DNA of 64,000 nt from an uncultured OCS116 cluster bacterium (GTDB lineage: Bacteria; Pseudomonadota; Alphaproteobacteria; Rhizobiales; TMED25): NCBI GenBank assembly GCA_902613795.1, contig CACMIP010000002.1:81466-145465 (forward strand). The letters run 5' to 3'. The notes under the pieces are model-generated. The model ran no database searches. It had not been told where the DNA came from and saw nothing but the letters and a program-made list of their open reading frames with translations. How positions within the stretch are numbered: position 1 is the first letter of the stretch; every line of letters starts with the position of its first letter. The translations under genes and the position numbers were made by a program. Of this stretch, positions 6,063 through 32,142 are shown piece by piece.

Positions 6063-7576
<1,514 letters not shown>

Positions 7577-7578
<2 letters not shown>

Positions 7579-7615
7579 AAAAAACTGAACTCAAGGGTAG
7601 AGTCCAGTTTTTTTT
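7577..7615. terminator. Bidirectional rho-independent terminator between convergent genes
   Basis: The structure is A8-ACTGAACTC-aagggta-GAGTCCAGT-T8. The stem is 9 bp with one A:C mismatch, flanked by an A-tract and a T-tract, so it reads as a terminator on both strands. It starts at the aminotransferase stop codon. Confidence 0.5.
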
Positions 7616-7731
7616 GATGTGCAAGTGTATACGTTAATTGGGAGGTTTCATATACATTATTGAAAAATAACTTAATTTTGTATGCAAATCTATACATAAT
7701 AATGCAAATTAGATATGCATTTTATGCAATA

Positions 7732-8613
7732 CTAAAATGCCCACTCTTTCCCTTTTTCAATAATAAATTCTCTGAAAACCGCAATCCTTTTCGAATTCCT
7801 TCTTTCTTCTGCATAAGTCAGATAAGTATCAATTTCAGGGAGTTTTGCGTTGAATGCTATTCTAACTAAATTATCATCCCTACCAATAAGATAATCTGGA
7901 AGCATTGCAATTCCAATACTGTTTGAGACCGCCATGTGTAATCCTTTTATGTTTCCTATTTTTAAAATTGGCTTTATCTTGTATTCTTTAGTTATATTCT
8001 CTAACCAATTTATTTCTTTCAGATAATCGGGCGCTTTCCCATATGTGACAATTTTGTGGTTCTTAAGGTCACTTGCTTTGCTTGGTGTACCATACTCATC
8101 AAGATAACTTGGAGATGCATATAAATGAAAATGAACAGTGAATAGCTTGCGTTGTATAAGATCTAATTGTTGCGGCTTATGAAACCTAATTGCGATATCT
8201 GCTTCCCTCATCCCGACATCCAGCTCGGCATCAGTTAACCTGAGCTCTAGATTAATTTCAGGGAATTTTGAAGTAAAATCTCCAAGGCGAGGTGTTAGCC
8301 AATTGGTACCAAGACCAACGGTTGTTGTGACAGATAAATCTCCTGATGGCCTCTCTTTGCTATCTATTAATTCAAATTCAGCGTCCTTAATTATATCAAC
8401 AATATTTCTTGTCCGTTTATATAGCAGTTCGCCCTGCTCGGTAAGTATAAGTCCTCGGGGGTGTCTGTGAAATAGCGGCATACCAACCTCATATTCAAGA
8501 TTAGAAACCTGCCTACTAATAGCAGATTGACTTGTATTAATTTCCTCACTTGCATGAGAAAAGCTACCAGCATCTGCAACAATATGAAAAATTCTTAACC
8601 TATCCCAGTCCAT
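7732..8613 (-). CDS. LysR-family transcriptional regulator
   Basis: 293 aa with an N-terminal wHTH (SFSHASEEINTSQSAISRQVSNLE) and a LysR substrate-binding domain. Its start overlaps the trxB stop by 14 nt. Confidence 0.9.
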   Translation of the reverse strand: MDWDRLRIFHIVADAGSFSHASEEINTSQSAISRQVSNLEYEVGMPLFHRHPRGLILTEQGELLYKRTRNIVDIIKDAEFELIDSKERPSGDLSVTTTVGLGTNWLTPRLGDFTSKFPEINLELRLTDAELDVGMREADIAIRFHKPQQLDLIQRKLFTVHFHLYASPSYLDEYGTPSKASDLKNHKIVTYGKAPDYLKEINWLENITKEYKIKPILKIGNIKGLHMAVSNSIGIAMLPDYLIGRDDNLVRIAFNAKLPEIDTYLTYAEERRNSKRIAVFREFIIEKGKEWAF

Positions 8614-9553
8614 TGGTATTCTTGCTTGCTAGAAAATTTTCTGCGTCCAGGGCGGCCATGCAGCCCATTCCTGCGGCAGTTACAGCTTGACGATATTTTT
8701 CATCGGTCACATCACCAGCAGCAAAGACACCAGATATTGAGGTTTTTGTAGACCCAGGAGTAGTGACAATGTATCCATTTTTAGTTTCTAAATCTTTTGT
8801 AAATAGTTCAGTTGCAGGTTTGTGACCAATTGCAATAAAAACCCCGTCTGTTTCTAAGTGTCCTATTTTATTTGATTTTGTGTTTCGTATATTTATGCCA
8901 GTAACAGAATTTGGATTTTTTGTACCCGTAATCTCATCTACAACACAATCCCAGATTACATTTATCTTCTTATTCTTAAATAATCTGTCTTCTAGTATTT
9001 TTTCGCATCGCAATTCATCTCTTCTATGAATGAGGGTTACTTTGCTTGCAAAATTTGTTAGAAATAACGCCTCTTCAACAGCTGTATTGCCGCCCCCAAC
9101 AACAACTACAGTCTTATCCTTGTAAAAGAACCCATCACAGGTTGCACACGCTGAAACTCCAAAACCCATGAATTTTTCTTCAGTTTCCAAACCAAGCCAT
9201 TTTGCCTGGGCTCCAGTGCATATAATGAGGCTTTCGGCAATATATTCAGTTCCGGAGTCACCGTTCATATGGAATGGGTATTTAGATAGATTACATAGAT
9301 TGATGTGGTCATTTATCACTTCTACACCTGTATTCTTAGCCTGCAGCCTCATCTGATCCATGAGCCAAGGGCCCTGTATGATATCTGCAAAACCTGGGTA
9401 GTTTTCAACGTCGGTGGTTATTGTAAGTTGGCCGCCGGGTTGAATACCTTCAATTAGAATTGGTTCTAGCATTGCGCGTGCAGCATAAATTGCGGCAGTG
9501 TATCCAGCTGGACCTGAACCAATTATTATTACTTTAGATTTTTTTTCAGCCAT
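8600..9553 (-). CDS. trxB: Thioredoxin-disulfide reductase
   Basis: 317 aa with FAD motif GSGPAGYTAA, redox-active CATCDG and NADPH motif GGGNTAVEEA. Confidence 0.95.
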   Translation of the reverse strand: MAEKKSKVIIIGSGPAGYTAAIYAARAMLEPILIEGIQPGGQLTITTDVENYPGFADIIQGPWLMDQMRLQAKNTGVEVINDHINLCNLSKYPFHMNGDSGTEYIAESLIICTGAQAKWLGLETEEKFMGFGVSACATCDGFFYKDKTVVVVGGGNTAVEEALFLTNFASKVTLIHRRDELRCEKILEDRLFKNKKINVIWDCVVDEITGTKNPNSVTGINIRNTKSNKIGHLETDGVFIAIGHKPATELFTKDLETKNGYIVTTPGSTKTSISGVFAAGDVTDEKYRQAVTAAGMGCMAALDAENFLASKNTNGLG

Positions 9554-9589
9554 ATATTTATAATTTATCTATTGGAAACTGTGGTTACT

Positions 9590-10066
9590 TTATGCATACT
9601 TAATTTTGATGATTTCATAGCTTTTACCACCACCTGGTGTAGCAACTTCGACACTATCACCGATAGTTTTTCCGATTAACGCTCTTGCAATTGGTGAGCT
9701 AATTGAGATTAGACCCTCGGAGATGTTAGACTCAAACTCACCAACAATTTGATACTTAGCTTCTTTTTCTGTATCCTCGTCTACTACGGTCACCATTGCA
9801 CCAAATTTAACAATATTACCCGATAATTTTGTTATATCGATGACATCAGCCCTCGATAATTTATCCTCAAGATCACTAATCTTTGCTTCATTCATTGCCT
9901 GTTGTTCTTTCGCTGCATGATACTCAGCATTTTCTGAGAGATCACCATGCTTTCGCGCTTCAGCAATCGCTGCAATTATTTGAGGTCTTTCAGCCGTCTT
10001 CAGGCGCTTTATTTCAGCTTGGAGATTTTCATAACCATTGATTGTCATTGGTATTTTATCCATCAT
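9590..10066 (-). CDS. greA: Transcription elongation factor GreA
   Basis: 158 aa with the Gre coiled-coil N-domain carrying [13 protein letters not shown] and a C-terminal FKBP-like domain. Confidence 0.95.
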
Positions 10067-10122
10067 TTATCCTGTGTGAATTCATTCCTGTAATAGTGTA
10101 AAACATCATTACTAAATAATTA

Positions 10123-13100
10123 TTAAAAATACTCCTGCAAGGATTTAATTTTCCCCAATCCATTTAAATATCTTTCTATCGCAATGACCACTGCTAATGC
10201 GCCAGATAATGTTGTGTAGTATGGGATCCTATTTCTTAGGGCCGCTTGCCTGAGTGATTTGCTATCTGATAATGCTTTGCTTCCTTCTGTTGTATTAATA
10301 ACCAAGTTTATATTGTTATTGTTCATGGAGTCAACAACGTGCGGCCTTCCCTCTAAGACTTTATTAACTCTTTCCACACTTATTCCGTTTTCGATCAGGA
10401 AGCGTTGAGTCCCACCAGTGGCAAGAATCTGAAAACCCAGATTTTCTAATACCCGTACAGATTCAACGATATGAGATTTATCTTTATCCTTGACTGAAAC
10501 AAAAACATTTCCTCGCTTTGGCAGAGGGACATTGGTTCCCAATTGGCTTTTTGCAAAAGCAATTCCAAAGTCATCGCCAATTCCCATAACTTCTCCTGTT
10601 GATTTCATCTCAGGACCCAACAAAACATCAATCCCATCGAATTTGGTGAAGGGAAAAACAGCCTCTTTAACTGCTATGTGTTTCCTAGTTGACATTTTCT
10701 TTGGTCGTTTAAAGCCTCTACCTGTTATAATCTCCGTAGCTATTTTCGCAACAGGGTAACCTGTTACCTTTGCGACAAATGGGATGGTTCTACTTGCGCG
10801 TGGATTTACCTCAATTATGTAAATTTCATCATCTTTGATTGCAAATTGTATGTTAATACAACCTATAATGTTGAGTGACTCACTTATTGCATTTGTTTGT
10901 CTTTCAAGTTTATTAATAATATTAGACTTCAGTGAATAAGGGGGGATGGAGCATGCGCTATCGCCTGAATGAACGCCAGCCTCCTCGATATGCTGCATTA
11001 TTCCACAAATATGAACCTTCTTTCCATCAGAAATTGCGTCAACATCTACTTCAACTGCATCCGAGAGGTATCGATCTAAGAGCAATGGATTATCTTTTAG
11101 AAGAGTGTCAATTTGCCTCTCTCTATTTTGGGGATATTTTGATTTTATGCTCTCAGGGATCAGTTCCGGTAAAGTACTTTCAATATAATCATCATAGTCA
11201 TTTTCATCCCTCAGTATTACCATCGCTCTGCCGCCTAAGACATAAGATGGCCTCAGGATAATTGGCAAACCAATATCAAGAATTGATTTGCGGGCTTCAC
11301 TTATCGAGTATGCAATTTTATTTTCCGGCTGTTTTAAATTTAGGTCTCGAATTAATTTTTGAAATCTATCCCGATCTTCTGCGAGATCAATGGTATCAGG
11401 TGAAGTCCCAAGGATATTTATACCTCTTTTTGATAGTTCTTCAGATAATTTTAGCGGTGTTTGTCCACCAAATTGCACAATTACCCCAATTAATTTACCA
11501 GTTTCCTGCTCTAATTTTATAATTTCAAACACATCTTCAGTCGTCAGAGGTTCAAAATATAGCCTATCAGATGTATCATAATCAGTTGAAACAGTTTCAG
11601 GATTGCAATTAATCATTATTGTTTCAATACCCATCTCTTTAAGTGCGAAGCATGCGTGGCAGCAGCAATAATCAAATTCAATTCCCTGCCCAATTCTATT
11701 TGGCCCGCCGCCGATAATAATAATTTTTTCATTATCACTTGGATTTGCTTCGCAATCCATGTCTTGATTATCGAAATGGCTGTAGGTAGAGTACATATAT
11801 GCAGTCAATGTTTGGAATTCAGCTGAACAAGTATCAATATGTTTGAAGACTGGATTTATATTTAAATCTTCCCTTTTTTGTCTAACATAATGCTCGTCTT
11901 CTCCTATTAAATTGGCAAGTCGCGCATCAGAAAAGCCATACGATTTTAAAAGGCGAAAATTTTCCTGATCTTTTGGTAACCCATATTGCTGTACCTTGTT
12001 TTCAATATCAATAATTTCCTGCAGTCTATCAATAAACCACGGATCAATTTTACATGATTGATGGATTTGTTGGTGAGATATACCAAGCCTCAGTGCTTGT
12101 GCGACTTTTAATATACGATTTGGTGTAGGCTCACCTAATTCAGCCCGGACAATATTTTTTTTTGCATCTTTACCAATATCTGAAAACTCAATAGGATCCA
12201 GACCGGTTAACCCAATTTCTAGGGATCTAAGTGCCTTTTGAAGGCTCTCAGCAAAAGTTCTGCCAAATGCCATTGCTTCACCGACGGATTTCATTGAGGT
12301 TGTTAATAACGGCTCAGCATCTGGAAATTTTTCAAACGCAAATCTCGGTATTTTTGTAACAATATAATCAATTGTAGGTTCAAAAGACGCAGGGGTTTGG
12401 CCTCCAGTTATATCATTTGAAAGTTCATCAAGAGTGTATCCTAGGGCTAATTTGGCAGCTACTTTAGCAATTGGAAATCCTGTAGCTTTTGAAGCTAATG
12501 CCGATGATCTTGAAACTCTTGGGTTCATCTCAATGACAACCATTTCTCCATTCTCAGGATTCACAGCAAATTGTACATTTGAACCGCCCGTTTCTACCCC
12601 AATTTTACGGAGTATTGCGACTGAGGCATTACGCATAATTTGATACTCTTTATCAGTTAGAGTTAGCGCTGGAGCGACGGTAATTGAGTCACCTGTATGA
12701 ATACCCATCGGATCAACATTTTCTATAGAGCATATGATTATGCAATTATCATTTTTATCTCTTACAACCTCCATTTCATATTCTTTCCAACCCAAAACGG
12801 ACTCTTCAATTAAAACCTCTGAAGTTGGTGAGGCATCGATACCATTCTCAACAATTTTAATAAACTCCTCACGTGTGTAGGCAATACCACCACCAGTTCC
12901 CCCAAGAGTAAAAGAGGGACGAATTATTACTGGGAGACCAAGTTCATTCAAGGCATCAAGTCCTTGTGATAGATTATGAGCTAGAAGTGATTTGGGTGTT
13001 TTCAATCCAATCTCACCCATTGCCTCCCTGAAAAGCTCTCTATCTTCCGCCATGTCGATAGCTTTAGATGATGCCCCAATCATTTCGACATTATACTTAT

Positions 13101-19400: not shown

Positions 19401-19477
19401 GGGCGATTAGCTCAGTTGGTTAGAGCCCTCCGCTCATAACGGAGTGGTCCCAGGTTCGAGTCCTGGATCGCCCACCA
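19401..19477 (+). tRNA. tRNA with CAU anticodon (elongator tRNA-Met type; lysidine-modified tRNA-Ile2 not excluded)
   Basis: Hand-folded cloverleaf: acceptor GGGCGAT/ATCGCCC, D arm GCTC/GAGC, anticodon stem CTCCG/CGGAG with loop CTCATAA, T arm CCAGG-TTCGAGT-CCTGG, and an encoded CCA. The G1:C72 pair and the absence of a GGG/CCC anticodon stem argue against an initiator. Confidence 0.9.
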
Positions 19478-20147: not shown

Positions 20148-21494
20148 ATGAAACCAGTGGATCCTACAAAGGGTTATGAGCTAGATACTAGCTTTATTCA
20201 AGAGCAGCACCATACAAATCCAAGAAGACTGTACAGTCAAACTGGTGCAGATTGGCAATATCGTGTTGATCACGAGAGACTAAGAAGGCAGAGATTAGAA
20301 CGAATTAGAGCTGAAATGGAAGCGGATGATCTCGGAGCGCTTGTAGTGTTCCAAGGAGCGAATGTAAGATATATAACAGGATCCTACCAAGGAAACTGGA
20401 AATATAACATTAACATTAGGTATGCTGTGCTCCCTCGTGGCGGCGATCCAGTCCTATTCGAAACAGCTGGTTCGGACATGAGAAATGCTCACCTAGACTT
20501 ACCTTGGCTAGGTGAAGAAAATATTAGACCCGCGATGACTTGGCAGTGGGCTGAGGGTGCTGTTGGTGAAATGGCTGATAAAATGGTTGCAACCGTAAAA
20601 CAAGTTTTAGTTGATAACGGTGTTGATAAAGAAAAGATTGGTGTTGATCAGTTAGATATGCCTGCACTTCATGCAATGGAAAAAGCTGGCATTAAAATAG
20701 TAAATGGCTGGCCAGCTATGTCACGTGCAAGAGTTGTGAAAACAATAGACGAAATTGAGCATTTAAAGATGTCATCATCTATTGGTGATGCAGCAATGTG
20801 GCATGTTAAACATGAGTGGTTAAAACCAGGCATAACAGAACGTCAAATCGAAGCAAAAGTACACGACTTCATGCTATCACGTGGATGTGAAATTATTTAT
20901 GACATCATTGTTGCGTCAGGGGGTAATACAAGTCCATACAGAAGATGGGCAACTGATAAACTTATTCAACAAGGCGATCTACTCATTGTTGATATAAACG
21001 CAGTTGGACCTGGTGGTTACTTTATTGACTACGTTCGAACATTCAAATGTGGTTCGAAATTGTCTCAGCAAGAAATTGATCTATATCGTGAAACATATGA
21101 CTCAATGTATGCAGGCTTAGAAAACCTCAGACCAGGAAAAACTTCAGCTGATGTTGTATCAAAATTCCCAGAGTATGATGATGACAAGTACGGTACTGTT
21201 ACACTGCAACAGTTTGCTCACTCAATAGGTATCACACTTTATGAAGGTATGTGGATGAGTAGGGCTTACTCACTAAAATATCCTGCTGAAATAAAGGAAA
21301 ATATGTATTTTGCTATTGAGACTTTTGCAGGACATCCGGGCCTTCCTCAAACTTGTAGGTTAGAGGAAAATGTTCTGGTCACAAAAGATGGACCATCTGT
21401 ATTTACTAAAATGGAGCATATGGAAGAGGCCGTCGCAGGATATAGACCAGGCGAATTCCATCATGCAGAGATTTTTGGATACCCTCAAAAATAA
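20148..21494 (+). CDS. M24-family metallohydrolase (creatinase/prolidase fold with creatinase-like N-domain); substrate unknown
   Basis: 448 aa. The pita-bread-fold ligands are present by my count: D282 and D294 (LLIVDINAVGPGGYFIDY), H358 (FAHSIG), E391 (FAIETF) and E406 (RLEENV). RBS AAAGGGG lies upstream. Confidence 0.8.
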   Translation: MKPVDPTKGYELDTSFIQEQHHTNPRRLYSQTGADWQYRVDHERLRRQRLERIRAEMEADDLGALVVFQGANVRYITGSYQGNWKYNINIRYAVLPRGGDPVLFETAGSDMRNAHLDLPWLGEENIRPAMTWQWAEGAVGEMADKMVATVKQVLVDNGVDKEKIGVDQLDMPALHAMEKAGIKIVNGWPAMSRARVVKTIDEIEHLKMSSSIGDAAMWHVKHEWLKPGITERQIEAKVHDFMLSRGCEIIYDIIVASGGNTSPYRRWATDKLIQQGDLLIVDINAVGPGGYFIDYVRTFKCGSKLSQQEIDLYRETYDSMYAGLENLRPGKTSADVVSKFPEYDDDKYGTVTLQQFAHSIGITLYEGMWMSRAYSLKYPAEIKENMYFAIETFAGHPGLPQTCRLEENVLVTKDGPSVFTKMEHMEEAVAGYRPGEFHHAEIFGYPQK

Positions 21495-21507
21495 ATATAA
21501 TATAAAC

Positions 21508-21529
21508 CTCGAGGCTTTATTGCCTCGAG
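21508..21529 (+). terminator. GC-rich hairpin between the M24 gene and the KdsB-like gene (attenuator or partial terminator)
   Basis: CTCGAGGC-tttatt-GCCTCGAG forms a perfect 8-bp stem starting 14 nt after the stop codon. No U-tract follows, so it may not terminate fully. Confidence 0.3.
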
Positions 21530-21556
21530 TGTCACTCCATGTAAAGGCAAACTTTT

Positions 21557-22372
21557 GTGTATTATAAGTTTGAAAAAAATCGCTCAATGATTTTTAATCC
21601 ATTAATAATTGTTGCGTCCGAACTAGGTATAAGAGATTTATCATCAGAGCCTCCAAAGCCCAAAGAACAAGTCAAGGCCATGGTTGCTGCATTTCGAAAA
21701 GTCAATGACTCAGGTATTGGTAGTGTGATAGTCGATGGTGTATCAGATGAGCAAGTTACCGAGCTCGAGGGGAATGGAGCTTACACTGTTAAAACTGATA
21801 TGTCTGAATTTGGAAAAGACCACAATTATCGTTCAAAATCCGGGGCTGAACGCATAGCGGCAACAGTTAATAAATTTGATCGATATTACACCCATGATAT
21901 TGTTGTAGCTGTGCCCGATGATATGCCCGAGCTAAAGCCATATTACATGCAAGCACTCATGTATGCACTTTCGGATAGTGATGTCGGTATTGCTACAATG
22001 GTCTCGCCGTTAACTGATGAAGAGCGATATGATAATGAAGTGGTCAAGGCAAAGGTTGATTGGAACTCTGACAGAATTGTCTATCCTTTAGAAGGATCAA
22101 AGGTTGGTACTTTAAAGGATATTAGAAGAAATATTTATGACTTTGATACTGACGATGTATATAAGCTTGTTCCTATACATGCGTGGAGGAGGGGGCCATT
22201 AGATAAACTAATTGAGCTACCACCATCAGACCGTGAATTTGAAGAAGGAACGGATCTTGTCCGAGCCTTAGATGCTGGTATGAGGATCGATGTCACATTT
22301 GTAACTGATAATATGAAGGTATTGATTTCACCAGAAGAATTAGATGAAGCCGCATATGAAATTGAAGGATAG
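21557..22372 (+). CDS. KdsB-like (CMP-KDO synthetase fold) protein with degenerate catalytic motifs
   Basis: The sequence aligns by eye along the length of E. coli KdsB. Matches include SGAERIAATV vs SGTERLAEVV, IVVAVPDDMPEL vs VIVNVQGDEPMI, VGIATMVSPL vs VGMATLAVPI, and EEGTDLVRALDAGMRIDV vs EMLEQLRVLWYGEKIHV. The N-terminal PARxxSxRxPGKPL loop is replaced by VASELGIRDLSSEPPKP. The track start at 21557 is a GTG; an alternative ATG lies at 21587. Confidence 0.65.
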   Translation: MYYKFEKNRSMIFNPLIIVASELGIRDLSSEPPKPKEQVKAMVAAFRKVNDSGIGSVIVDGVSDEQVTELEGNGAYTVKTDMSEFGKDHNYRSKSGAERIAATVNKFDRYYTHDIVVAVPDDMPELKPYYMQALMYALSDSDVGIATMVSPLTDEERYDNEVVKAKVDWNSDRIVYPLEGSKVGTLKDIRRNIYDFDTDDVYKLVPIHAWRRGPLDKLIELPPSDREFEEGTDLVRALDAGMRIDVTFVTDNMKVLISPEELDEAAYEIEG

Positions 22373-22398
22373 TCCGTTGCTTCAAAATGAGGTTTAAA

Positions 22399-23667
22399 AT
22401 GAATAGACCATACTACAAACCAGATCCAGTTGGTGGGGCAGAACAATACGTTGGTGCCGAACATAGACTTAATGAGCCATGGGAAGAACAAGCGCATAAT
22501 GTAAAATTAGTTGGGCATTCAGATTTAAATGGCTGGGGTGATGCCTTCCAGATACAGGTATCAAATGGAATATGTTATGTTGCTGCGTCAGGAATTAATG
22601 GTCATAATGGTATGACAATTCTTGATGTCAAAGATCCATCAAAGCCAAAAATATTAAATCAAATATCAGACTCACCCGGTGCGCGAACCCATAAGGTTCT
22701 CAGAATTAGTGATGATATATTAATTACAAATTCAGAGTTGAGGCCTAATCTTGTTGGTCAATACCCAGAACTAAAAGGTGGATTACGAGTTTTTGATATA
22801 TCAGATCCTATTAATCCAAAATTTATTAGACACGTTGAAGTAGATGGTTTTGGCATACATAGGCCGATCTATGATAGGGATAGAAAATTGATGTATAGCT
22901 CTGGTTTTAAAGACGGCTATAATGGAAAAATACTTCTTATTCATGATATGAAAGATCCATCAAATCCTAGTTTTATTGGTCATGGGTGGGTTAAGGGTCA
23001 AAAAGAAGGTGAAGAGTATTCATGGGATAACTCTATAGTTAAAAATGAAGCTTGGTGCCACGAAGGAAATCCATGGGGTAACTTCGTAACTGCTGGATGG
23101 TGGGATGGAGGTATTGTTTTATTTGACTGTACGGATCCATCAAAACCAGAATTTAAGTGGAGACACAACCCTCATGAAACCCATGGCTGGCCTGGAAACT
23201 ATCATAGTTTTCTTGTGCCAAAGGGCTCTGAATTTGGAATTGTTACTCAAGAAACTATAACCGTTAATTGTGAGCATCCGCCAGCATTTATTACATTCTA
23301 CGATTTAAGAAATAAAGATGTCCCTCTTCCAGTTAGTACATATATGCCATTTGATATAGATCCACATGAGATGAGACCATTAGACTCTAAATGGGGGCAG
23401 ACAGGATCAAGACATGGCGCTCATAATATATGGTTGGATATGGAAAAAAATGATCTTATCTATATTGCTTGGTTTAATGCTGGGTTAAGGATCATTGACT
23501 GGAGCAATCCATTTAGCCCTAAAGAAGTTGGATCTTATATCCCAGCTGGAAATAGAGAACGATGCTGTCCACAAAGTAATGATGTTTATGTCGATCGTGA
23601 AACTGGACTTATATACATGTCTGATCGATGGGGTTTAGGTCTACATATACTCGAATATACAGGTTAA
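22399..23667 (+). CDS. LVIVD-repeat beta-propeller protein, no signal peptide
   Basis: Six visible repeats of the hydrophobic-x-D-x-S/T-D/N-P-x-x-P type: TILDVKDPSKPK, LRVFDISDPINPK, LLIHDMKDPSNPS, IVLFDCTDPSKPE, ITFYDLRNKDVPLP and LRIIDWSNPFSPK. I prefer the ATG at 22399 (GAGG 6 nt upstream) over the track start at 22387. Confidence 0.7.
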   Translation: MNRPYYKPDPVGGAEQYVGAEHRLNEPWEEQAHNVKLVGHSDLNGWGDAFQIQVSNGICYVAASGINGHNGMTILDVKDPSKPKILNQISDSPGARTHKVLRISDDILITNSELRPNLVGQYPELKGGLRVFDISDPINPKFIRHVEVDGFGIHRPIYDRDRKLMYSSGFKDGYNGKILLIHDMKDPSNPSFIGHGWVKGQKEGEEYSWDNSIVKNEAWCHEGNPWGNFVTAGWWDGGIVLFDCTDPSKPEFKWRHNPHETHGWPGNYHSFLVPKGSEFGIVTQETITVNCEHPPAFITFYDLRNKDVPLPVSTYMPFDIDPHEMRPLDSKWGQTGSRHGAHNIWLDMEKNDLIYIAWFNAGLRIIDWSNPFSPKEVGSYIPAGNRERCCPQSNDVYVDRETGLIYMSDRWGLGLHILEYTG

Positions 23668-23672
23668 ACTAT

Positions 23673-24860
23673 ATGAAAACACCCTTACAAGGTATTAGAG
23701 TAATTGAGTTTGGCAACTTTATTGCTGGACCTTTCTGCGGAATGCTGCTTGCAGATATGGGAGCAGAAGTAATAAAAATTGAGCCTCTATCAGGTGACTT
23801 GGCCCGAGCTATACCACCAATAATTGATGGGAAAAGTGCTGCATTCATGACCTTAAATAGAAATAAAAAAAGCTTAGCATTAGATTTAAAGTCTGACAAT
23901 GGTAGGTCTCTTACGCTTGAGATATTAAAATCAGCAAATGTAATAATTGAGAACAATAGACCAGGTGTGATGCAAAGACTGGGTTTGGGTGAAGAGGATG
24001 TAAAAAAAATAAATAATAAAATTGTTTACACATCTGTATCCGGTTTTGGACAGACAGGTGAATTAAAAAATAGAGCGGGTATAAATCTTATTATTGAAGC
24101 ATTATCAGGCACGTTATCCGTAATGGGTGAGAAAGGAGAAATTCCCCCTAGACCTGGCTTGCAAACCGCAGACATTCTTGGCGCAATGTTTGCTACCTAT
24201 TCTACTTTAGCCGGATTAATTGGACAGATTCAACACAATCAAGGTATGCATGCAGATGTAGCTCTAATCGAGGCATCTATCGCCTCTGCTGTATGGGAAA
24301 CGACAGAATACTTATCGAATGGTATTGTTCCAGAGCAGTTAGGGCATTCACACCGAGCAAGTGCACCATATCAATTATTTGAAACAAATGATAAAAGGTA
24401 CATTGCAATAGGTGCACCAAGTGACGCACATTTTAAGAGATTGATGAGCATACTAGATCTAAATGATTTATTAGAAAATCCGAAATTTATTTCATATTCC
24501 AGTAGAAAAGAAAATGAAAACGACCTAGTTCCAGCTGTTGCAGATAAAATAATGGATTGGGACTCATCAAATTTAGAAATTAAATTGACAGAAGCTGGTA
24601 TACCATGTGGTTGTGTAAGAAATTACAAAGAAGCTCTAAATAATCCTCATAGCATCGAAAGGCAGCTTGTAACAGAAATAGGTGATGGTCAAGGTTCCAA
24701 AATTAAGACAATACGTAATCCAGTCTTAATTAATAATAAACCAATAAACGTAGATAACCTAGCTCCAGAATTAGGTCAACATAGCTTTGAAATTTTAAAT
24801 GAAGTTGGTGTAGATAAAAATGCGTTTTGCAAACTCGTCAGTGCTGGTATTACTACCTAG
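23673..24860 (+). CDS. Class III (CaiB/BaiF family) CoA-transferase
   Basis: The N-terminus LQGIRVIEFGNFIAGPFCGMLLADMGAEVIKIEP is typical of the family, and the putative catalytic Asp context QTADILG is present. The ATG at 23673 gives the canonical N-terminus, whereas the track start at 23628 overlaps the upstream gene. Confidence 0.9.
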   Translation: MKTPLQGIRVIEFGNFIAGPFCGMLLADMGAEVIKIEPLSGDLARAIPPIIDGKSAAFMTLNRNKKSLALDLKSDNGRSLTLEILKSANVIIENNRPGVMQRLGLGEEDVKKINNKIVYTSVSGFGQTGELKNRAGINLIIEALSGTLSVMGEKGEIPPRPGLQTADILGAMFATYSTLAGLIGQIQHNQGMHADVALIEASIASAVWETTEYLSNGIVPEQLGHSHRASAPYQLFETNDKRYIAIGAPSDAHFKRLMSILDLNDLLENPKFISYSSRKENENDLVPAVADKIMDWDSSNLEIKLTEAGIPCGCVRNYKEALNNPHSIERQLVTEIGDGQGSKIKTIRNPVLINNKPINVDNLAPELGQHSFEILNEVGVDKNAFCKLVSAGITT

Positions 24861-25908
24861 TTTTTACTTTTTCTATTATTGCATTTGTCATATCAATAGT
24901 AGAAGATTTTCCTCCAATATCTGCTGTTAAGTATTTTCTTTCTTTGATTACTTCTAATGCTGACTCCTCAATAATATTTGAAGCCATAATTAATTTATCC
25001 TCACTGTATTTCAAGCCCATCCATGATAGTAGCATTGATGTTGACATAATAATGGCATATGGGTTTGCAACATTTTTTCCTGCAATATCAGGTGCAGAAC
25101 CATGTGTTGCTTGAGCCATCGCAATATTATCCCCAAGACAAAGGCCTGGCGCCATACCAATTGAACCAATTAGGCCTGCTCCAATATCACTTAATATATC
25201 ACCAAATTGATTTGTTGTTACAACAATATCAAATGACTCAGGATTTGAGACTAGGTGCATAGCAGTTGTGTCAATCAGAGTGTCTTCATAAGAGATTGAA
25301 GGATATTCCTTTGAAACTTTTAAACATTCCTCTAGGAACATTCCGCAACTTAATCTGAATAGAGGTTCTTTATGTGCTGCTGTAACTTTAGATCTATTTT
25401 TGCTTACAGCCAAATCAAAGGCCGCTTTAGCTACTCTATTAGAACCTTTTCTTGTAATAACTCTTGATGCGATGGTAATTTCATCGTTTGGGCGAAACTC
25501 AGGATATCCTCCAACAATTGTGTCTGAACTTTGCAGGCCTTCTGTTAATTCTCTTACGAAGATGATATCTATATTTCTTGAATTATCATATGACTTTGCA
25601 GGTCTTATTGCAGCATATAATTCAAATTTTTTTCTTATAGGGGGCATTTTCCAAGTGGAGTCATTTCGTGGATAATTATTGTGCCCAATAGGACCGCAAA
25701 TTATTCCATGGACTTTATTTAATTGCGAGACCGTGTATTCAGGAAAGGTATCGCCATACTGACTATGAGCTAATTTTCCAATGGGTAAGTCAATTATTTC
25801 AATACTATATCCAAGAGAATTTAGTGTTTCAGTTAATACCAACTTGGCCATTGGGACAATTTCTATACCAATATCATCACCGTTCATAATTGCAATTTTT
25901 AGCTTCAT
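24853..25908 (-). CDS. Isocitrate/isopropylmalate dehydrogenase-family enzyme (tartrate or D-malate/IPM dehydrogenase-like paralogue)
   Basis: 351 aa beta-decarboxylating dehydrogenase with signature NQFGDILSDIGAGLIGSIGMAPG. Its 3' end overlaps the CoA-transferase gene by 8 nt. Confidence 0.85.
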   Translation of the reverse strand: MKLKIAIMNGDDIGIEIVPMAKLVLTETLNSLGYSIEIIDLPIGKLAHSQYGDTFPEYTVSQLNKVHGIICGPIGHNNYPRNDSTWKMPPIRKKFELYAAIRPAKSYDNSRNIDIIFVRELTEGLQSSDTIVGGYPEFRPNDEITIASRVITRKGSNRVAKAAFDLAVSKNRSKVTAAHKEPLFRLSCGMFLEECLKVSKEYPSISYEDTLIDTTAMHLVSNPESFDIVVTTNQFGDILSDIGAGLIGSIGMAPGLCLGDNIAMAQATHGSAPDIAGKNVANPYAIIMSTSMLLSWMGLKYSEDKLIMASNIIEESALEVIKERKYLTADIGGKSSTIDMTNAIIEKVKTR

Positions 25909-27657: not shown

Positions 27658-28581
27658 ATGAAATCAAATCAAATAGTTTTACTTGATGGCGGAATTGGCC
27701 AGGAGATATATAAAAGAGCGGGATCACCCGAATCAAAGACGCTTTGGTCATTGCAGATCATGCGAGATAATCCAGAGATTGTAGTTAGTGTTCATATGGA
27801 TTTTATAAATGCAGGATCAAAAGTTTTAAGCTTAAATAATTATGCGGCAACCCCATCAAGATTAGAGAGAATTGCAATGAGTGATAGTTTTGATGAAATC
27901 CACTCCTTGTCGATCCAGTTATTGAATACAGCAATTTCTGAGTCAAAGTCTGCGAGATCGGATTTATCCATCGCCGGTTGCTTACCGCCACTTATCGCCA
28001 GTTATTCAGCAGAGGATAGTAGGGAAAATAAGGAACTTTTTGATGAGTATATACTTTTAATTGAACAGCAGATTGATCATGTCGATTTATTTCTGGTCGA
28101 GACAATGTCTAGCATCAAAGAGATAATTGCTGTGACTGATGCTCTTGATCATTTTGGATTAGGTAAGTATGTTAGTCTCACTTTAGATGATGATCATCCT
28201 AATTTGCTCAGATCTGGTGAAAATTTGGTAGATGCAATCAAATTATTGGAAATGAAATCTGCGGATGCGATTTTATTAAATTGCTCCTGCCCTGAAACAA
28301 TAACATCAGCGTTATCTGAATTTAAAAATATTGAAATACCTTTTGGCGCTTACGCAAATGGTTTTTCTTCTGTCAAAGATTTGAAATTTGGAAATAGTAT
28401 AAATGTATTGGAGGCAAGAAATGACCTCGGTCCGGATGAATATTCAAAATTTGCAATGGATTGGATTGATAGAGGTGCAAGAATAATTGGAGGCTGTTGT
28501 GAGATTGGCCCAAAGCATATCAATAGAGTTTCAGATCAAATACATCTTAATGGTTACACGACGATGAAGCTTGGATTATGA
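27658..28581 (+). CDS. Homocysteine S-methyltransferase (MmuM/BHMT-type, zinc-dependent)
   Basis: 307 aa Pfam S-methyl_trans-like protein (LLDGGIGQE, LVETMSS). The Zn-ligand cysteines are in NCSCPE and GGCCEIGP. Confidence 0.85.
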   Translation: MKSNQIVLLDGGIGQEIYKRAGSPESKTLWSLQIMRDNPEIVVSVHMDFINAGSKVLSLNNYAATPSRLERIAMSDSFDEIHSLSIQLLNTAISESKSARSDLSIAGCLPPLIASYSAEDSRENKELFDEYILLIEQQIDHVDLFLVETMSSIKEIIAVTDALDHFGLGKYVSLTLDDDHPNLLRSGENLVDAIKLLEMKSADAILLNCSCPETITSALSEFKNIEIPFGAYANGFSSVKDLKFGNSINVLEARNDLGPDEYSKFAMDWIDRGARIIGGCCEIGPKHINRVSDQIHLNGYTTMKLGL

Positions 28582-31500
28582 ATTATTTTTCACTCCGTAT
28601 CCTCCACCTGAAGGAGTAGTAATCATCAGTCGATCTCCAATTGCTAATTCGATTTGGCAATTTCCTTCTATCTCTGTTGCCACATTGTTTCTTATTCTGA
28701 TGTTGGACCCCAGCTTACCTGGTTCACCGCCACAAAGACCAAATGGATGTTCTTTCCTGTTATTTGATAACAAAGAACAACTCATATTATCACAAATGAA
28801 GAATATTTTTCTTAAACCTCGGCCACCTGCATATTTACTATTATTTTGTTTTTTCCCGACTAGGGATATTTCTGAGAGAATAATTGGATATTCTTCCTCA
28901 AAAATTTCAGGATCGGTAGATCTTGAATTTGTCATATTTGTCTGTATTGCATCACAACCATTATGATTTTTTCCCGCCCCCTGACCTCCACAAACTGTCT
29001 CGTAATATTGAAATTTGTCATTACCAAGGATGATATTATTCATTGTAGATTGACACGATGCTTTGATGGAGAGCGCACCAAAAATACAATTTGCAAGTGC
29101 TTGGCTCACTTCAACATTTCCCGCTGAGACGGCTGCATTTTTTGAGGGATTAATTATAGAGTTAGTGTCCGTAGATATTTCTACAGGTTCAAGGATACCT
29201 GAATTTAGTGGAATATCCTCATTAATTAAACATCTTAAGACATAAATTATGACAGCTTTTGTGATTGGAAGTGGAGCGTTAAAGTTATCTGAACTTTCTC
29301 TACTTGATCCAGTGAAGTCAAAGTTAATTTTTTTACCCTTAGAACATGCCTTTATTTTTAATTTGAGATTAAAATTATCTAGTGCCATATTGAAGCTTGA
29401 TGGTTTAATATTTTTCAATATACCAAGACATGCCGTTTTTGCATTCTCTTGTATTGCATACATTTGCTTTAGAACAACGTCTAATCCATAATAGTCAATG
29501 ATTTTACGTAATTGTATCTCACCAATTTTATTTGCTGCTACTTGAGCTGTAATGTCTTGTATGTTGAGCTCGGGATTTCTCGCAGGATATTTGCCGCTAT
29601 TTAATTTTTTTTGTAATCGTTCGTTTTTCGTAAGATCACTCATACGAATTTTAAAATTATCAAATATAATACCTTCATCATCCAACTTTTTTGCTTCGGG
29701 AGTCATAGATCCTGGATATATTCCACCAATATCGGGGTGATGACCCCGCGTGGCTAAGTAAAAAATTATATCTTCGGTTTTTTCAGAAAAGATAGGGGAA
29801 ATAATAGTAATATCAGGCAAATGAGTTCCTCCAGAATTAGGTGAGTTGTTTATGAATATATCTCCCCTTTTTACAGATTGATTTTTCTTGATAAGCCCTT
29901 TTATACAATCATCCATTGATCCAAGATGCACTGGTATATGAGGTGCATTCGCAACAAGATTACCGATATTATCAAATAGAGCACATGAGTAATCAAGCCG
30001 CTCTTTTATATTTATGGAGGCCGCGGTCCTTTGCAGTGTTTCCCCCATAGTTTCTGCTACTGACATAAAATGGTTATTAAAAATCTCCAACATTATTGGT
30101 GCTTCATCAGCTTTTCTGAGAGTCTTTGATGTTTTAATTCTTTTTATTAGAATATTACCTGATTGATCCCGAGTTGCTTGCCATCCCTCTTCTATGATTA
30201 TTGTTGAGTGATCATCAATCAGCATTGCTGGCCCTGTAAGTTCGATGTCATAGAATTTTTCTATTCGACACACAATAGCCTTAACCCATTTTCCTTTGCT
30301 ATAGAAATTTTCATAATCAAACTTATTTTTTGTATTTATTTTTTTTATAGGCAGTTCAATTTTATTATGTCGAGGGGTAGTTTCAACTTGAATCATATCA
30401 AGTATAATTTTTCTATTTAGGTTATAGCCATATATCTTTTTATGAATTTTCCTAAAGTTTTTGATTAAATCTTCACACTTAATTTTTGATTTTTTTTCTT
30501 TTATGCAAATACTTTGATCGGTACCCTTATACTTCAAATAAAATAAATTTAAATGAGATACAGTCTTGGATTTGGTATTAACTAGGTTTTCTTTTTGAAG
30601 TTTTTTAATAAGAGCATCAATTTTATTTCTATATTTTGTATCAAATTCAAAAAAAGTACTTTCTTGCTTAATATACTTCTCTCCGGATTGAGCCATGCCA
30701 TATGCCGATAAAAAACTTGATAGTGGATTAATAATAACTGTTTTGATCTCAAGGTTCTCAGCAATCTGGCAAGCGTGTTGGCCACCCGCCCCCCCATAAC
30801 TCACAAGCGCATGCTCCTCTAGGTGCAGACCTTTCCTTGTGGCAATTTTTCTTATAACTCTGCACATTTTCTCAACTGCAATTTTTATAAACCCTTCAGC
30901 TATATCTTCTGGAAGCATTTTTGAGTCAATGTTATCTCTCAGTTGTTTAAATTCCTCAGATACAATTTGCTTGTTAAGCATGGATTTGCCGTCATGGCCA
31001 AACTTCTTTGGGAAATATTTTTCTATAATTTTACCAAGAAATAGGTTTGCGTCTGTGAGTGTTAGGGGGCCATTTTTTCCATAAGACATTGGTCCAGGGA
31101 ATGAACCCGCGGATTTTGGTCCAACGGTCATCCTTGAGTTCCTATATTCTAAGATTGAACCTCCACCAGAAGCAATTGTGTCAATATCGATAATAGGTAC
31201 CTGAAGTATTTGGTTGTCGATGGTTTTCTCATTCTTGTACTCCAATTCACCTTCGAAATAGGAGACATCAGTAGAGGTGCCGCCCATATCAAAAGTTATA
31301 ATTTTTTTAAAGCCTGAGTTTTTACCAACTGAGATTGCACCCATTACGCCCCCAGCTGGACCAGATAATATAGAATTTATACCTCGGAAGTTTTTTTCTT
31401 CTGCGAGGCCTCCATTCGATTGCATATATCTTAGACTAATGTTATTTTTATCAAAATTTATTTCTTTCTTTAAATTATCTATATCGCTTCTGATAATAGG

Positions 31501-32142
31501 ATCTACATAAGCATGTACAAGAGATGTATGTGTTCTTCGTATATATTTAATAGTTTTTGAAATTTCATGACCGAGTGTGACATTTTTGTGGCCAAGTTGA
31601 TTTAGTATACTTTGGATCTCAATTTCATAACCAGGGAATTTCCACCCATGAATTAAGCTTACACAAATTGAATTATAACTACCTATTTTTATTTGCTTTA
31701 ATTGCTTTGTGATTATTTTCCAATTTGGTTTTATGAAATCATTCCCACTCTTTGTGAGACGGATATCCAACTCTATCACTTTTGAAAATAACGGGATTGG
31801 CTTCTTGATTTCTAGTGAAAATATGTCTTGTCTACTTTGATAACCAATCGTTTGGCAGTCTCTAAAACCTTTTGGGACAATTAGAAGTATTTTTTCACCT
31901 GTTTTCTCCAAAAGGGCGTTTGTAGCTTTCGTTGTACCAACGGTTATATTCCCTATATTTTTAAGTTCTGTAGAGTTATCTGTTAAGATTTTTTTTATAC
32001 CGTTTGAAACAGGATCATCATGCTTGTTTTGAGACTGACTCAATACTTTTTCTAGAAATAGACTATTATTTGGGGAAAGAGCAATTATATCAGTAAATGT
32101 ACCACCTTTATCTATCCAGAAATTCCAATTATTTTTTTCCAT
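28576..32142 (-). CDS. Fused hydantoinase A/B family enzyme (5-oxoprolinase / N-methylhydantoinase-like, ATP-hydrolysing)
   Basis: 1188 aa with an N-terminal HyuA (hydantoinase/oxoprolinase, FWIDKGGTFTD, DMGGTSTD) fused to a C-terminal HyuB domain. Its stop overlaps the methyltransferase stop by 6 nt. Confidence 0.9.
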   Translation of the reverse strand: MEKNNWNFWIDKGGTFTDIIALSPNNSLFLEKVLSQSQNKHDDPVSNGIKKILTDNSTELKNIGNITVGTTKATNALLEKTGEKILLIVPKGFRDCQTIGYQSRQDIFSLEIKKPIPLFSKVIELDIRLTKSGNDFIKPNWKIITKQLKQIKIGSYNSICVSLIHGWKFPGYEIEIQSILNQLGHKNVTLGHEISKTIKYIRRTHTSLVHAYVDPIIRSDIDNLKKEINFDKNNISLRYMQSNGGLAEEKNFRGINSILSGPAGGVMGAISVGKNSGFKKIITFDMGGTSTDVSYFEGELEYKNEKTIDNQILQVPIIDIDTIASGGGSILEYRNSRMTVGPKSAGSFPGPMSYGKNGPLTLTDANLFLGKIIEKYFPKKFGHDGKSMLNKQIVSEEFKQLRDNIDSKMLPEDIAEGFIKIAVEKMCRVIRKIATRKGLHLEEHALVSYGGAGGQHACQIAENLEIKTVIINPLSSFLSAYGMAQSGEKYIKQESTFFEFDTKYRNKIDALIKKLQKENLVNTKSKTVSHLNLFYLKYKGTDQSICIKEKKSKIKCEDLIKNFRKIHKKIYGYNLNRKIILDMIQVETTPRHNKIELPIKKINTKNKFDYENFYSKGKWVKAIVCRIEKFYDIELTGPAMLIDDHSTIIIEEGWQATRDQSGNILIKRIKTSKTLRKADEAPIMLEIFNNHFMSVAETMGETLQRTAASINIKERLDYSCALFDNIGNLVANAPHIPVHLGSMDDCIKGLIKKNQSVKRGDIFINNSPNSGGTHLPDITIISPIFSEKTEDIIFYLATRGHHPDIGGIYPGSMTPEAKKLDDEGIIFDNFKIRMSDLTKNERLQKKLNSGKYPARNPELNIQDITAQVAANKIGEIQLRKIIDYYGLDVVLKQMYAIQENAKTACLGILKNIKPSSFNMALDNFNLKLKIKACSKGKKINFDFTGSSRESSDNFNAPLPITKAVIIYVLRCLINEDIPLNSGILEPVEISTDTNSIINPSKNAAVSAGNVEVSQALANCIFGALSIKASCQSTMNNIILGNDKFQYYETVCGGQGAGKNHNGCDAIQTNMTNSRSTDPEIFEEEYPIILSEISLVGKKQNNSKYAGGRGLRKIFFICDNMSCSLLSNNRKEHPFGLCGGEPGKLGSNIRIRNNVATEIEGNCQIELAIGDRLMITTPSGGGYGVKNNS

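Follow-up and report, generated by a model that had tools for sequence, protein, structure and literature searches.

Four clustered genes of an uncultured OCS116 bacterium as a probable mosaic of independently inherited metallohydrolase and CoA-transferase units

The four genes at positions 20148-24860 of a 64-kb stretch of DNA from an uncultured OCS116 cluster bacterium (the window, in whose positions all coordinates of the block are given) encode an M24 metallohydrolase, a KdsB-fold protein, an LVIVD-repeat propeller and a class III coenzyme A (CoA)-transferase, and each of the four can be set against enzymes that have been described. Among the M24 proteins, the Xaa-Pro peptidases of the M24B type carry two histidines, in the motifs 'PHG' and 'IHE', with roles in substrate and transition-state interactions. 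The signature elements of KdsB, the synthetase of CMP-Kdo (Kdo, 3-deoxy-D-manno-octulosonate), are known from structural work and comprise the PARxxSTRxPxKPL loop, the Asp of QGD(E/M)P, the His of HxGxY, the EQLR motif and the Asp of GVDT. The relative of the propeller that matters here is the phosphotriesterase, or haloalkylphosphorus hydrolase, of Sphingobium sp. TCM1 (Sb-PTE; 5HRM, 5IOJ), in which we take His258, His317, His389, Glu407, His475 and a bridging Glu201 to be the metal ligands; in the 2016 structure paper of Mabanglo and colleagues they are reportedly assigned to a binuclear Mn centre. For DddP, an enzyme of dimethylsulfoniopropionate (DMSP) cleavage, the structure of RdDddP identifies Asp297 as an extra ligand and Tyr366 and Asp377 as the proposed catalytic residues (PMC4108388). 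Finally, the COG0523 protein ZNG1 metallates the M24 enzyme METAP1 in eukaryotes, and the review that describes this knows of no bacterial case (PMC11672702).

Judged by its sequence scores, no member of the block can be recognised as the orthologue of an enzyme already characterised, and no pathway described so far was found to have this set of genes, as a first-pass annotation of the stretch had already stated. That annotation had also read the four genes as one catabolic module for a small osmolyte or organic acid. Our comparison across genomes points elsewhere: we consider it probable, if by no means certain, that the block is specific to its lineage, a mosaic of three units with separate inheritance, and not a conserved four-step pathway.

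Distribution of the four genes across genomes

Scanning one genome per species for M24 orthologues, over 185,579 species, returned just 299 confirmed stretches, and the gene should thus be regarded as accessory and not as part of a core set. The census is based on the best 80 of these stretches, in which the M24 protein is 75-100% identical to that of the window. The 10-kb flanks of the 80 loci were searched with all window proteins, and 72 of the loci had sufficient downstream sequence. Immediately 3' of M24, the KdsB-like gene is found in 45 of the 72, in alpha-, beta- and gammaproteobacterial lineages. The 27 loci in which no KdsB-like gene was detectable consist of one Rhodospirillaceae subgroup together with all of the deltaproteobacterial (Desulfobacterales, Syntrophaceae), Acidobacteria and Anaerolineae loci.

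The propeller gene is present in 11 of the 72 loci, all of them from the OCS116 clade and with M24 proteins at least 97% identical to that of the window; the complete set of four is visible in the eight of these 11 that have long enough sequence. The CoA-transferase gene and the gene of an IsoDH-family dehydrogenase that follows it in the window occur in 12 loci of a single family, and every locus having either of the two has both. Four genome loci (L020, L022, L030, L032; L-numbers denote individual homologous loci) and one metagenome locus (L097) keep the order rpoD, tRNA-Met, M24, KdsB-like gene, CoA-transferase, IsoDH, mlaC, mlaA without the propeller. Since these sister loci share the synteny and lack the propeller, parsimony places its gain in the OCS116 core lineage. 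Outside the family, neither the CoA-transferase nor a close propeller homologue (>50% identity) stands beside M24 in any census locus, and distant propeller homologues are found no more than 10 kb from M24 in three metagenome-assembled genomes (MAGs) that are unrelated: L088, where the homologue is directly upstream, L052 and L038. The expectation that the four genes would be co-localised in related genomes is therefore borne out within the OCS116 core clade only and fails in the sister lineages; outside the family, only M24 and the KdsB-like gene keep company.

On this basis the block would comprise three units, probably transcribed in one direction in OCS116 bacteria. The first (20148-22372) would be a mobile two-gene cassette of M24 and its KdsB-like partner. 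The second (22387-23667) would be a second metallohydrolase, a propeller of the Sb-PTE type, acquired by the OCS116 core clade only. The third (23673-24860, with 24853-25908 on the minus strand) would pair an IsoDH-type dehydrogenase with a CoA-transferase for dicarboxylates or hydroxy acids, in a synteny limited to the family. Together, the three units may process carboxylate-containing dissolved organic compounds in OCS116.

The M24 enzyme and its KdsB-like partner

The M24 open reading frame (ORF) has a two-domain build, Creatinase_N followed by the pita-bread M24 domain, matching PF01321 with 34.8 bits and PF00557 with 109 bits against a gathering threshold of 23 (model positions 2-208 of 208). 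Its orthologues are 75-88% identical among Alpha-, Beta- and Gammaproteobacteria, the deltaproteobacterial lineages, Acidobacteria and Anaerolineae. By HMMER against representatives at 50% identity, the full-length family forms essentially one cluster; the nearest full-length relatives beyond it reach at most 41% identity, and those at 30-41% are also DddP-like only at sub-threshold scores. The best curated model for the window protein is that of DddP (NF043017), at 121.8 bits where the cut-off is 600. The corresponding values are 60.2 against 613 for the ectoine hydrolase DoeA (TIGR02993) and 80 against 630 for PepQ, and the PepP model is also far short of its cut-off. DddP provides the best match in the PDB as well (4s01, 87 bits).

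The alignment with DddP (4S01/4RZY, 4B28) runs end to end, over residues 4-420 and both domains, and the five canonical ligands of the binuclear site are all present: D282, D294, H358, E391 and E406 do not vary among 16 orthologues and align with the ligands of DddP and of prolidase. The residues specific to DddP are different. Its sixth ligand Asp297 is replaced by Asn284, and its Tyr366 and Asp377 by Leu353 and Leu364, three residues that are invariant in the M24 family. A similar picture emerges for the Xaa-Pro dipeptidases and aminopeptidase P, represented by the prolidase of P. furiosus (1PV9): the catalytic domain matches with 78 bits and the metal ligands are shared, whereas the 'PHG' histidine is replaced by Arg265/Arg266 and the 'IHE' histidine by Tyr365, and the M24 family is set apart by its extreme cross-phylum conservation and its dedicated KdsB-like neighbour. 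Because the ligands are kept and the characteristic residues of DddP and prolidase are replaced, we regard the protein as a metal-dependent pita-bread enzyme with a pocket of its own. By sequence it is a discrete and extremely conserved subfamily, DddP-like and yet distinct, which the source annotations label 'Xaa-Pro aminopeptidase'. The Arg265-Arg266 pair suggests an anionic substrate. We would expect the M24 protein to be the catalyst of the cassette, cleaving a C-N (or ester) bond by hydrolysis in a small anionic, carboxylate-bearing compound that would be neither an Xaa-Pro peptide nor DMSP.

The analogies with DMSP, ectoine and creatine enzymes that had been drawn for the M24 protein are not supported, given the DddP and DoeA equivalog scores and the exchange of the three DddP residues. 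A pantothenate-type pathway, in which M24 would act as amidase and the IsoDH-family protein as dimethylmalate dehydrogenase, was considered and dropped for want of support. In the literature on DddP and M24, only the RdDddP structure paper (PMC4108388) proved relevant.

The KdsB-like ORF begins with GTG, a start supported by an AAGG motif 8 nt 5' of it and by the FEKNRS peptide upstream of Met-11, which is conserved in the orthologues. Of the domains foreseen in the first-pass annotation, PF00557/PF01321, PF08309 and PF02515 were found where predicted; PF02348 was not, the KdsB-like protein having no Pfam match at E<=0.01, and it also stays below the NCBIfam cut-offs (NF003948, 87.6 against 281 bits; TIGR00466, 48.2 against 155). 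The fold itself is well supported, since the top 32 Foldseek matches of the AlphaFold2 model (mean confidence, pLDDT, of 79.7) are without exception CMP-Kdo synthetases, the best with E 2.8e-15, and those of known structure (3K8D, 1VH3, 2Y6P; Foldseek E 3e-15, TM score 0.62-0.78) also share the SGxER motif.

What the protein has lost was read from an alignment with the canonical KdsB P0239 and the KdsB of H. influenzae. The P-loop arginines of PARxxSTR, the QGD context, the equivalent of His181 (HxGxY), the EQ pair and the C-terminal Asp of GVDT are all replaced, and the remnants amount to the Asp of PDDMP, a possible Lys and SGAER; distant members of the cassette lose the QGD Asp too. The family has invariant motifs of its own, NPLIV, SGAER and FDRxxxHD. 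The protein is therefore probably a pseudo-cytidylyltransferase whose CTP, Kdo and Mg signatures are gone, in agreement with its earlier description as degenerate, and we would assign it the part of a non-catalytic partner for binding, regulation or scaffolding. Binding of a Kdo-type sugar acid was considered and dropped, as the His and Gln signature positions are replaced as well. The source annotations call it 'CMP-KDO synthetase'. The partner evolves much faster than M24, with 29-76% identity where the M24 proteins have 82-89%, and, unlike kdsB, its gene is tied to the M24 gene and not to lipopolysaccharide genes.

The origin of this family can be narrowed down. A subgroup of 263-aa proteins, 45-48% identical to the window protein, is Pfam-positive and keeps Lys19, the His181 equivalent and acidic residues. 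It occupies a stable housekeeping context, argG...rmuC-def-fmt-truA, without M24 (L176, 8001-8792; L179, 6001-6792), and may be either the functional KdsB of its marine lineage or an intermediate in a series of degeneration. From this subgroup, in which the catalytic residues are partly retained, it follows that the family descends from an alphaproteobacterial KdsB-like lineage.

The neighbours of the cassette differ among Rhodobacteraceae, Hyphomonadaceae, Rhodospirillales, the gammaproteobacterial Rariloculaceae and a betaproteobacterium. Genes of a tripartite ATP-independent periplasmic (TRAP) transporter adjoin it in L007 and in loci of the Hyphomonadaceae type, and tRNA genes lie directly 3' of it in L053 and L060. 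With or without its partner, M24 is elsewhere found beside tripartite tricarboxylate (TTT) transporters, 2-hydroxyacid, GFO/IDH/MocA and SDR dehydrogenases, HMGL-like lyases, FAD oxidases, Amidohydro_2 proteins, FAA hydrolases and cupins. At L178 (3195-15357), two 2-hydroxyacid dehydrogenase genes precede M24 and the KdsB-like gene, the whole being bracketed by DDE and IS110 transposases; a gene of the SBP56 (methanethiol-oxidase) family lies close by. The repeated company of hydroxy-acid oxidoreductases, lyases and carboxylate transporters makes a link to organic-acid catabolism plausible, and to this extent the idea of a catabolic module survives; as a property of the four-gene set, which is not widely conserved, it does not.

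One could speculate further that M24 and the KdsB-derived pseudoenzyme form a heteromeric metalloenzyme that has not been described, in which the dead nucleotidyltransferase would serve as a substrate-binding or regulatory subunit and, in some lineages, a stand-alone CobW C-terminal domain would aid metallation. The near-invariance of M24 would then reflect a specific and widespread small-molecule substrate, for example a hydroxy or keto acid that occurs in conjugated form in dissolved organic matter. We offer this scheme as tentative and rather doubtful.

The 62-nt spacer between the two genes contains a hairpin with a perfect 8-bp palindrome and a 6-nt loop, CTCGAGGC-TTTATT-GCCTCGAG, with a folding free energy of -17.4 kcal/mol (z = -3.8). 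Across 14 loci of the clade, 95.5% of the aligned cells are paired and six of the 11 pairs show compensatory changes, compared with 24-51% paired in slid controls. No T-run follows the hairpin in the window. Other alphaproteobacterial loci have hairpins of unrelated sequence in the same spot, several of them followed by T-runs (L017, L020, L022, L028, L062). A dispersed repeat is ruled out by its single copy in the window. The structure is probably an attenuator, causing partial termination, or a stabiliser of the 3' end of the M24 message, and it may keep the genes 3' of it expressed at a lower level than M24. Consensus scans for promoters and terminators showed no enrichment over shuffled sequence, the sole relevant terminator-like call being the same palindrome read on the minus strand. 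The spacers of 62, 14 or 26 (depending on the propeller start) and 5 nt between four genes on one strand, as reported in the first-pass annotation, are confirmed by the ORF coordinates; with tight spacing on one side and a conserved hairpin after M24 on the other, a single transcription unit is no more than plausible.

The propeller, metal chaperones and the CoA-transferase

The third gene, which probably starts at 22399 and not at 22387, encodes a protein matching PF08309 with 61.5 bits against a gathering threshold of 20.2. Its AlphaFold2 model (pLDDT 92.5) has seven blades, and the best Foldseek match is Sb-PTE (5HRM, E 4.4e-19, TM score 0.66), ahead by seven orders of magnitude of generic WD40 proteins at 5e-12. 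A profile of the family finds 5hrm with E 2.2e-20 over profile positions 21-369 of 402, nearly its full length. The differences are considerable: identity is about 17%, and the window protein is some 80-160 residues shorter, lacks the insertions of Sb-PTE, shows no evident signal peptide and is apparently cytoplasmic.

Five residues, H158, H225, H273, E289 and H346, are invariant down to homologues of 30-33% identity. Numbering by hand along chain 5IOJ, His258, His389, Glu407 and His475 of Sb-PTE align with H158, H273, E289 and H346, and after a shift of one strand His317, in 'TPHEV', probably corresponds to H225, in 'CHEG'; the position of Glu201 is not conserved. Homology to Sb-PTE, together with the alignment of the conserved residues to its metal centre, makes the propeller a probable binuclear metallohydrolase, whose substrates might be esters, phosphoesters or lactones. 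Given the homology of the family to Sb-PTE over nearly its full length, the view that the LVIVD propellers include no characterised enzyme needs correction. The literature on LVIVD proteins and on OCS116 offered nothing on function.

Close homologues of the propeller (56-75% identity) are found in Ancylobacter, Nitrospinaceae, Mesorhizobium and a Tara lineage, in mutually unrelated contexts, and in those examined neither M24 nor the CoA-transferase is present. Separately, an Acidobacteria MAG (L088, 4940-11296) has, directly 5' of its M24 orthologue, a gene for a propeller homologue whose N-terminus is lipoprotein-like; this gene is itself preceded by one for an outer-membrane protein resembling TonB-dependent receptors. 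The juxtaposition of M24 and propeller is here an independent one.

Both metalloproteins are met with near metal chaperones. Directly upstream of M24, nine loci (L008, 9364-9987; L038, L039, L044, L050, L051, L057, L060, L066) have a stand-alone gene for a CobW C-terminal domain of 156-207 aa without a GTPase domain, followed in most of them by M24 and the KdsB-like gene in this order. In Ancylobacter mangrovi (L091, 1-17281), a propeller homologue of 75% identity belongs to an island with three cobW and two FUR genes, folE, hisI, cysS and thrS; with its cysS and thrS paralogues this island resembles a zinc-starvation island. At L052 (4214-6530), a homologue of 30% identity is divergent from a full-length cobW (COG0523) and lies 4.5 kb from M24, with two cupin genes between. 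The window and the OCS116 clade have no adjacent cobW, cobW_C or fur/zur gene. As with ZNG1 and METAP1, a COG0523-family component is here associated with a binuclear M24 enzyme, and by analogy the stand-alone domain could be a bacterial counterpart; it differs in being a C-terminal domain only and in its absence from the window. The associations suggest that in some lineages M24 and the propeller rely on assisted metallation, which would not in itself identify a substrate.

The CoA-transferase matches PF02515 over its full length (367.6 bits, positions 1-366 of 366). Its start is the MKTPL conserved in the orthologues, although the ORF opens at 23628, and unlike DddD it is not a two-domain protein. 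The best curated model is that of succinate-glutarate CoA-transferase, at 278 bits with a cut-off of 750, and the protein is also below the other class III equivalogs: YfdE/oxalate (219/522), Frc (182/442), CaiB (134/413) and mesaconate (200/700). The closest solved structures are SUGCT (9br7, 219 bits) and YfdE (4hl6, 203 bits). We conclude that the enzyme is probably of the SUGCT, YfdE or succinate-glutarate type and acts on a dicarboxylic or hydroxy acid. The IsoDH-family protein is likewise below every NCBIfam equivalog, including LeuB, isocitrate, homoisocitrate and tartrate dehydrogenases. Together the two look like a small hydroxy-dicarboxylate module. Such a module fits loosely with the hydroxy-acid oxidoreductases found beside M24 elsewhere, and this is the main remaining argument for a functional link in OCS116.

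A metagenome scan with the CoA-transferase alignment recovered relatives outside the family at 45-54% identity. None of them has a gene for M24, the KdsB-like protein, the propeller or IsoDH in its neighbourhood, and among these relatives the pair of CoA-transferase and IsoDH is thus not conserved beyond the family. Where the window enzyme is paired with a dehydrogenase, these relatives have a lyase: a gene for a TctC binding protein adjoins the relative in L098, L101, L103 and L106, and a gene for an HpcH/CitE-like lyase lies 3' of it in L098 (cluster 6946-11108) and L101. Such clusters of TctC, CoA-transferase and HpcH/CitE-like lyase, in some cases with a GFO/IDH/MocA gene and with L107 also among them, probably encode an uncharacterised pathway of dicarboxylate CoA activation and lysis in their own right.

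Interpretation and genomic context

Several observations weigh against the mosaic. The substrate proposed for M24 would be drawn from residue substitutions and heterogeneous neighbourhoods alone. The pairing of M24 with the KdsB-like protein is not obligate, given the 27 of 72 loci without the partner and the M24-free subgroup of 263 aa. The three loci with distant propeller homologues (L088, L052, L038) hint at a recurrent link between M24 and propeller, which a mosaic underplays, and the gaps of 5-26 nt, together with a synteny of M24, KdsB-like gene, CoA-transferase and IsoDH held over family-level divergence, could reflect functional coupling within the lineage.

The same spacing, shared strand and synteny are what would be expected if the four genes were one catabolic operon for a single small compound, an osmolyte or organic acid akin to DMSP, ectoine, creatine, guanidino acids or N-acyl amino acids. 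In such an operon M24 would cleave a C-N or C-S bond, its acid product would be activated by the CoA-transferase, and the other two proteins, KdsB-like and propeller, would be accessories. A single operon would also agree with the propeller homologues in the three MAGs and with the surroundings of M24 elsewhere, where hydroxy-acid dehydrogenases, HMGL-like lyases and TRAP or TTT carboxylate transporters recur and an AMP-binding CoA ligase occurs with acyl-CoA dehydrogenases. We nevertheless consider a single operon unlikely: all four genes are together in the OCS116 core clade only, the sister lineages being without the propeller; outside the family, neither the CoA-transferase nor close propeller homologues co-occur with M24; the DddP, DoeA and CaiB cut-offs are missed widely and the catalytic residues of DddP are not conserved; and a conserved hairpin parts M24 from the other three genes. 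A chance assembly of housekeeping genes, in which M24 would be an Xaa-Pro dipeptidase or aminopeptidase, the KdsB-like protein the organism's own divergent CMP-Kdo synthetase and the rest unrelated core metabolism of a streamlined, gene-dense genome, seems to us distinctly unlikely. It would accommodate the labels in the source annotations, the position of the block between rpoD/dnaG and the mla genes, the short intergenic gaps normal for small genomes, the lack of a second kdsB in the 64-kb window and the 263-aa subgroup, which combines a housekeeping context with retained Lys19, His181 equivalent and acidic residues. Yet the prolidase histidines have become Arg-Arg and Tyr in M24, the KdsB-like protein is without P-loop arginines, EQ pair, GVDT Asp and an equivalent of His181, its gene accompanies M24 into gamma- and betaproteobacteria, and the rarity of M24 among species genomes marks an accessory gene.

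While the nine CobW_C loci, the cobW/FUR island of Ancylobacter mangrovi, the L052 homologue divergent from cobW and the precedent of ZNG1 and METAP1 (PMC11672702) could also be taken to mean that M24 and the propeller need COG0523 (CobW) metallochaperones, and that the cluster is a response to metal limitation with alternative or metal-sparing isozymes, we rate this as highly unlikely for the present locus, where neither the window nor the OCS116 clade has a cobW, cobW_C or fur/zur gene adjacent, and where no role of metal is apparent for the KdsB-like protein or the CoA-transferase. A need for a chaperone would, moreover, say nothing on the reaction catalysed.

With the mosaic as the preferred interpretation, the novelty rests in the M24/KdsB-like cassette and not in the four-gene set. 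The block is a clear lead for enzyme discovery in an abundant marine clade, rather than a surprising mechanism or a function already settled. Uncultured OCS116 bacteria are common heterotrophs of the ocean, whose accessory enzymes bear on which dissolved organic compounds turn over. The sharper target is the two-gene cassette across Proteobacteria, with M24 alone reaching Acidobacteria, Desulfobacterales and Anaerolineae. Should the two proteins truly form a complex, they would add a case of a pseudoenzyme taken on as an enzyme subunit and would be candidates for an orphan hydrolase activity. The homology between LVIVD proteins and Sb-PTE gives a testable activity class to a large family usually annotated as hypothetical, and the recurring CobW associations of M24 and propeller are likewise a testable lead.

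Table 1 Features of the block and its immediate surroundings in the window
Feature	Position	Strand	Evidence
tRNA-Met (CAU), context marker	19401-19477	+	ARAGORN; Rfam tRNA 69.8 bits
Predicted multi-pass membrane protein, 138 aa	19607-20023	+	ORF call
M24 metallohydrolase, 448 aa	20148-21494	+	PF00557 and PF01321
Intercistronic stem-loop	21508-21529	+	Folding energy and covariation
KdsB-fold protein, 271 aa, GTG start	21557-22372	+	Fold match; degenerate active-site signatures
LVIVD propeller, 426/422 aa	22387 or 22399-23667	+	PF08309
Class III CoA-transferase, 395 aa	23673-24860 (ORF opens at 23628)	+	PF02515
IsoDH-family beta-decarboxylating dehydrogenase	24853-25908	-	PF00180, 256 bits

The window is of low GC content (about 35%), and M24 proteins 100% identical to its copy occur in single-cell genomes and MAGs of the OCS116 cluster and Rhodobiaceae (L011-L014), with Tara contigs matching as well; this places the window in the OCS116/Rhodobiaceae group and not in Pelagibacterales or HIMB59. 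The features of the block are listed in Table 1. The whole block is bounded by rpoD/dnaG on one side and the mla genes on the other. The first-pass annotation had placed it between tRNA(CAU) and mla, but neither adjoins it directly: the 138-aa membrane ORF intervenes between the tRNA and M24, and the IsoDH-family gene, convergent with the CoA-transferase and overlapping its 3' end by 8 nt, before mlaC/mlaA. The order rpoD, tRNA-Met, M24 is kept throughout the Rhodobiaceae-like family, with the tRNA likewise upstream of M24 in L012, L019, L020, L022, L030 and L032. The 138-aa ORF has no match in Pfam or NCBIfam; by tblastn it is upstream of M24 in L011-L017 and L023, only a part of the OCS116 clade, and was not detected in L018-L022, L030 or L032.

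An Rfam scan for riboswitches and other known RNAs upstream of or inside the block gave the tRNA alone above threshold. A sub-threshold match to the Plastid-ycf2 5' untranslated region (26.6 against 65.7 bits; 19401-19475, minus strand), antisense to the tRNA, is almost certainly spurious. Further downstream lies a homocysteine S-methyltransferase-family gene (PF02574, 27658-28581) and, convergent with it on the minus strand (28576-32142), a gene for a fused hydantoinase A/B of 1188 aa, of the oxoprolinase or N-methylhydantoinase type. The synteny of these two genes is kept in the clade and also in L022 and L097, and a link to methylated amines or hydantoins is possible.

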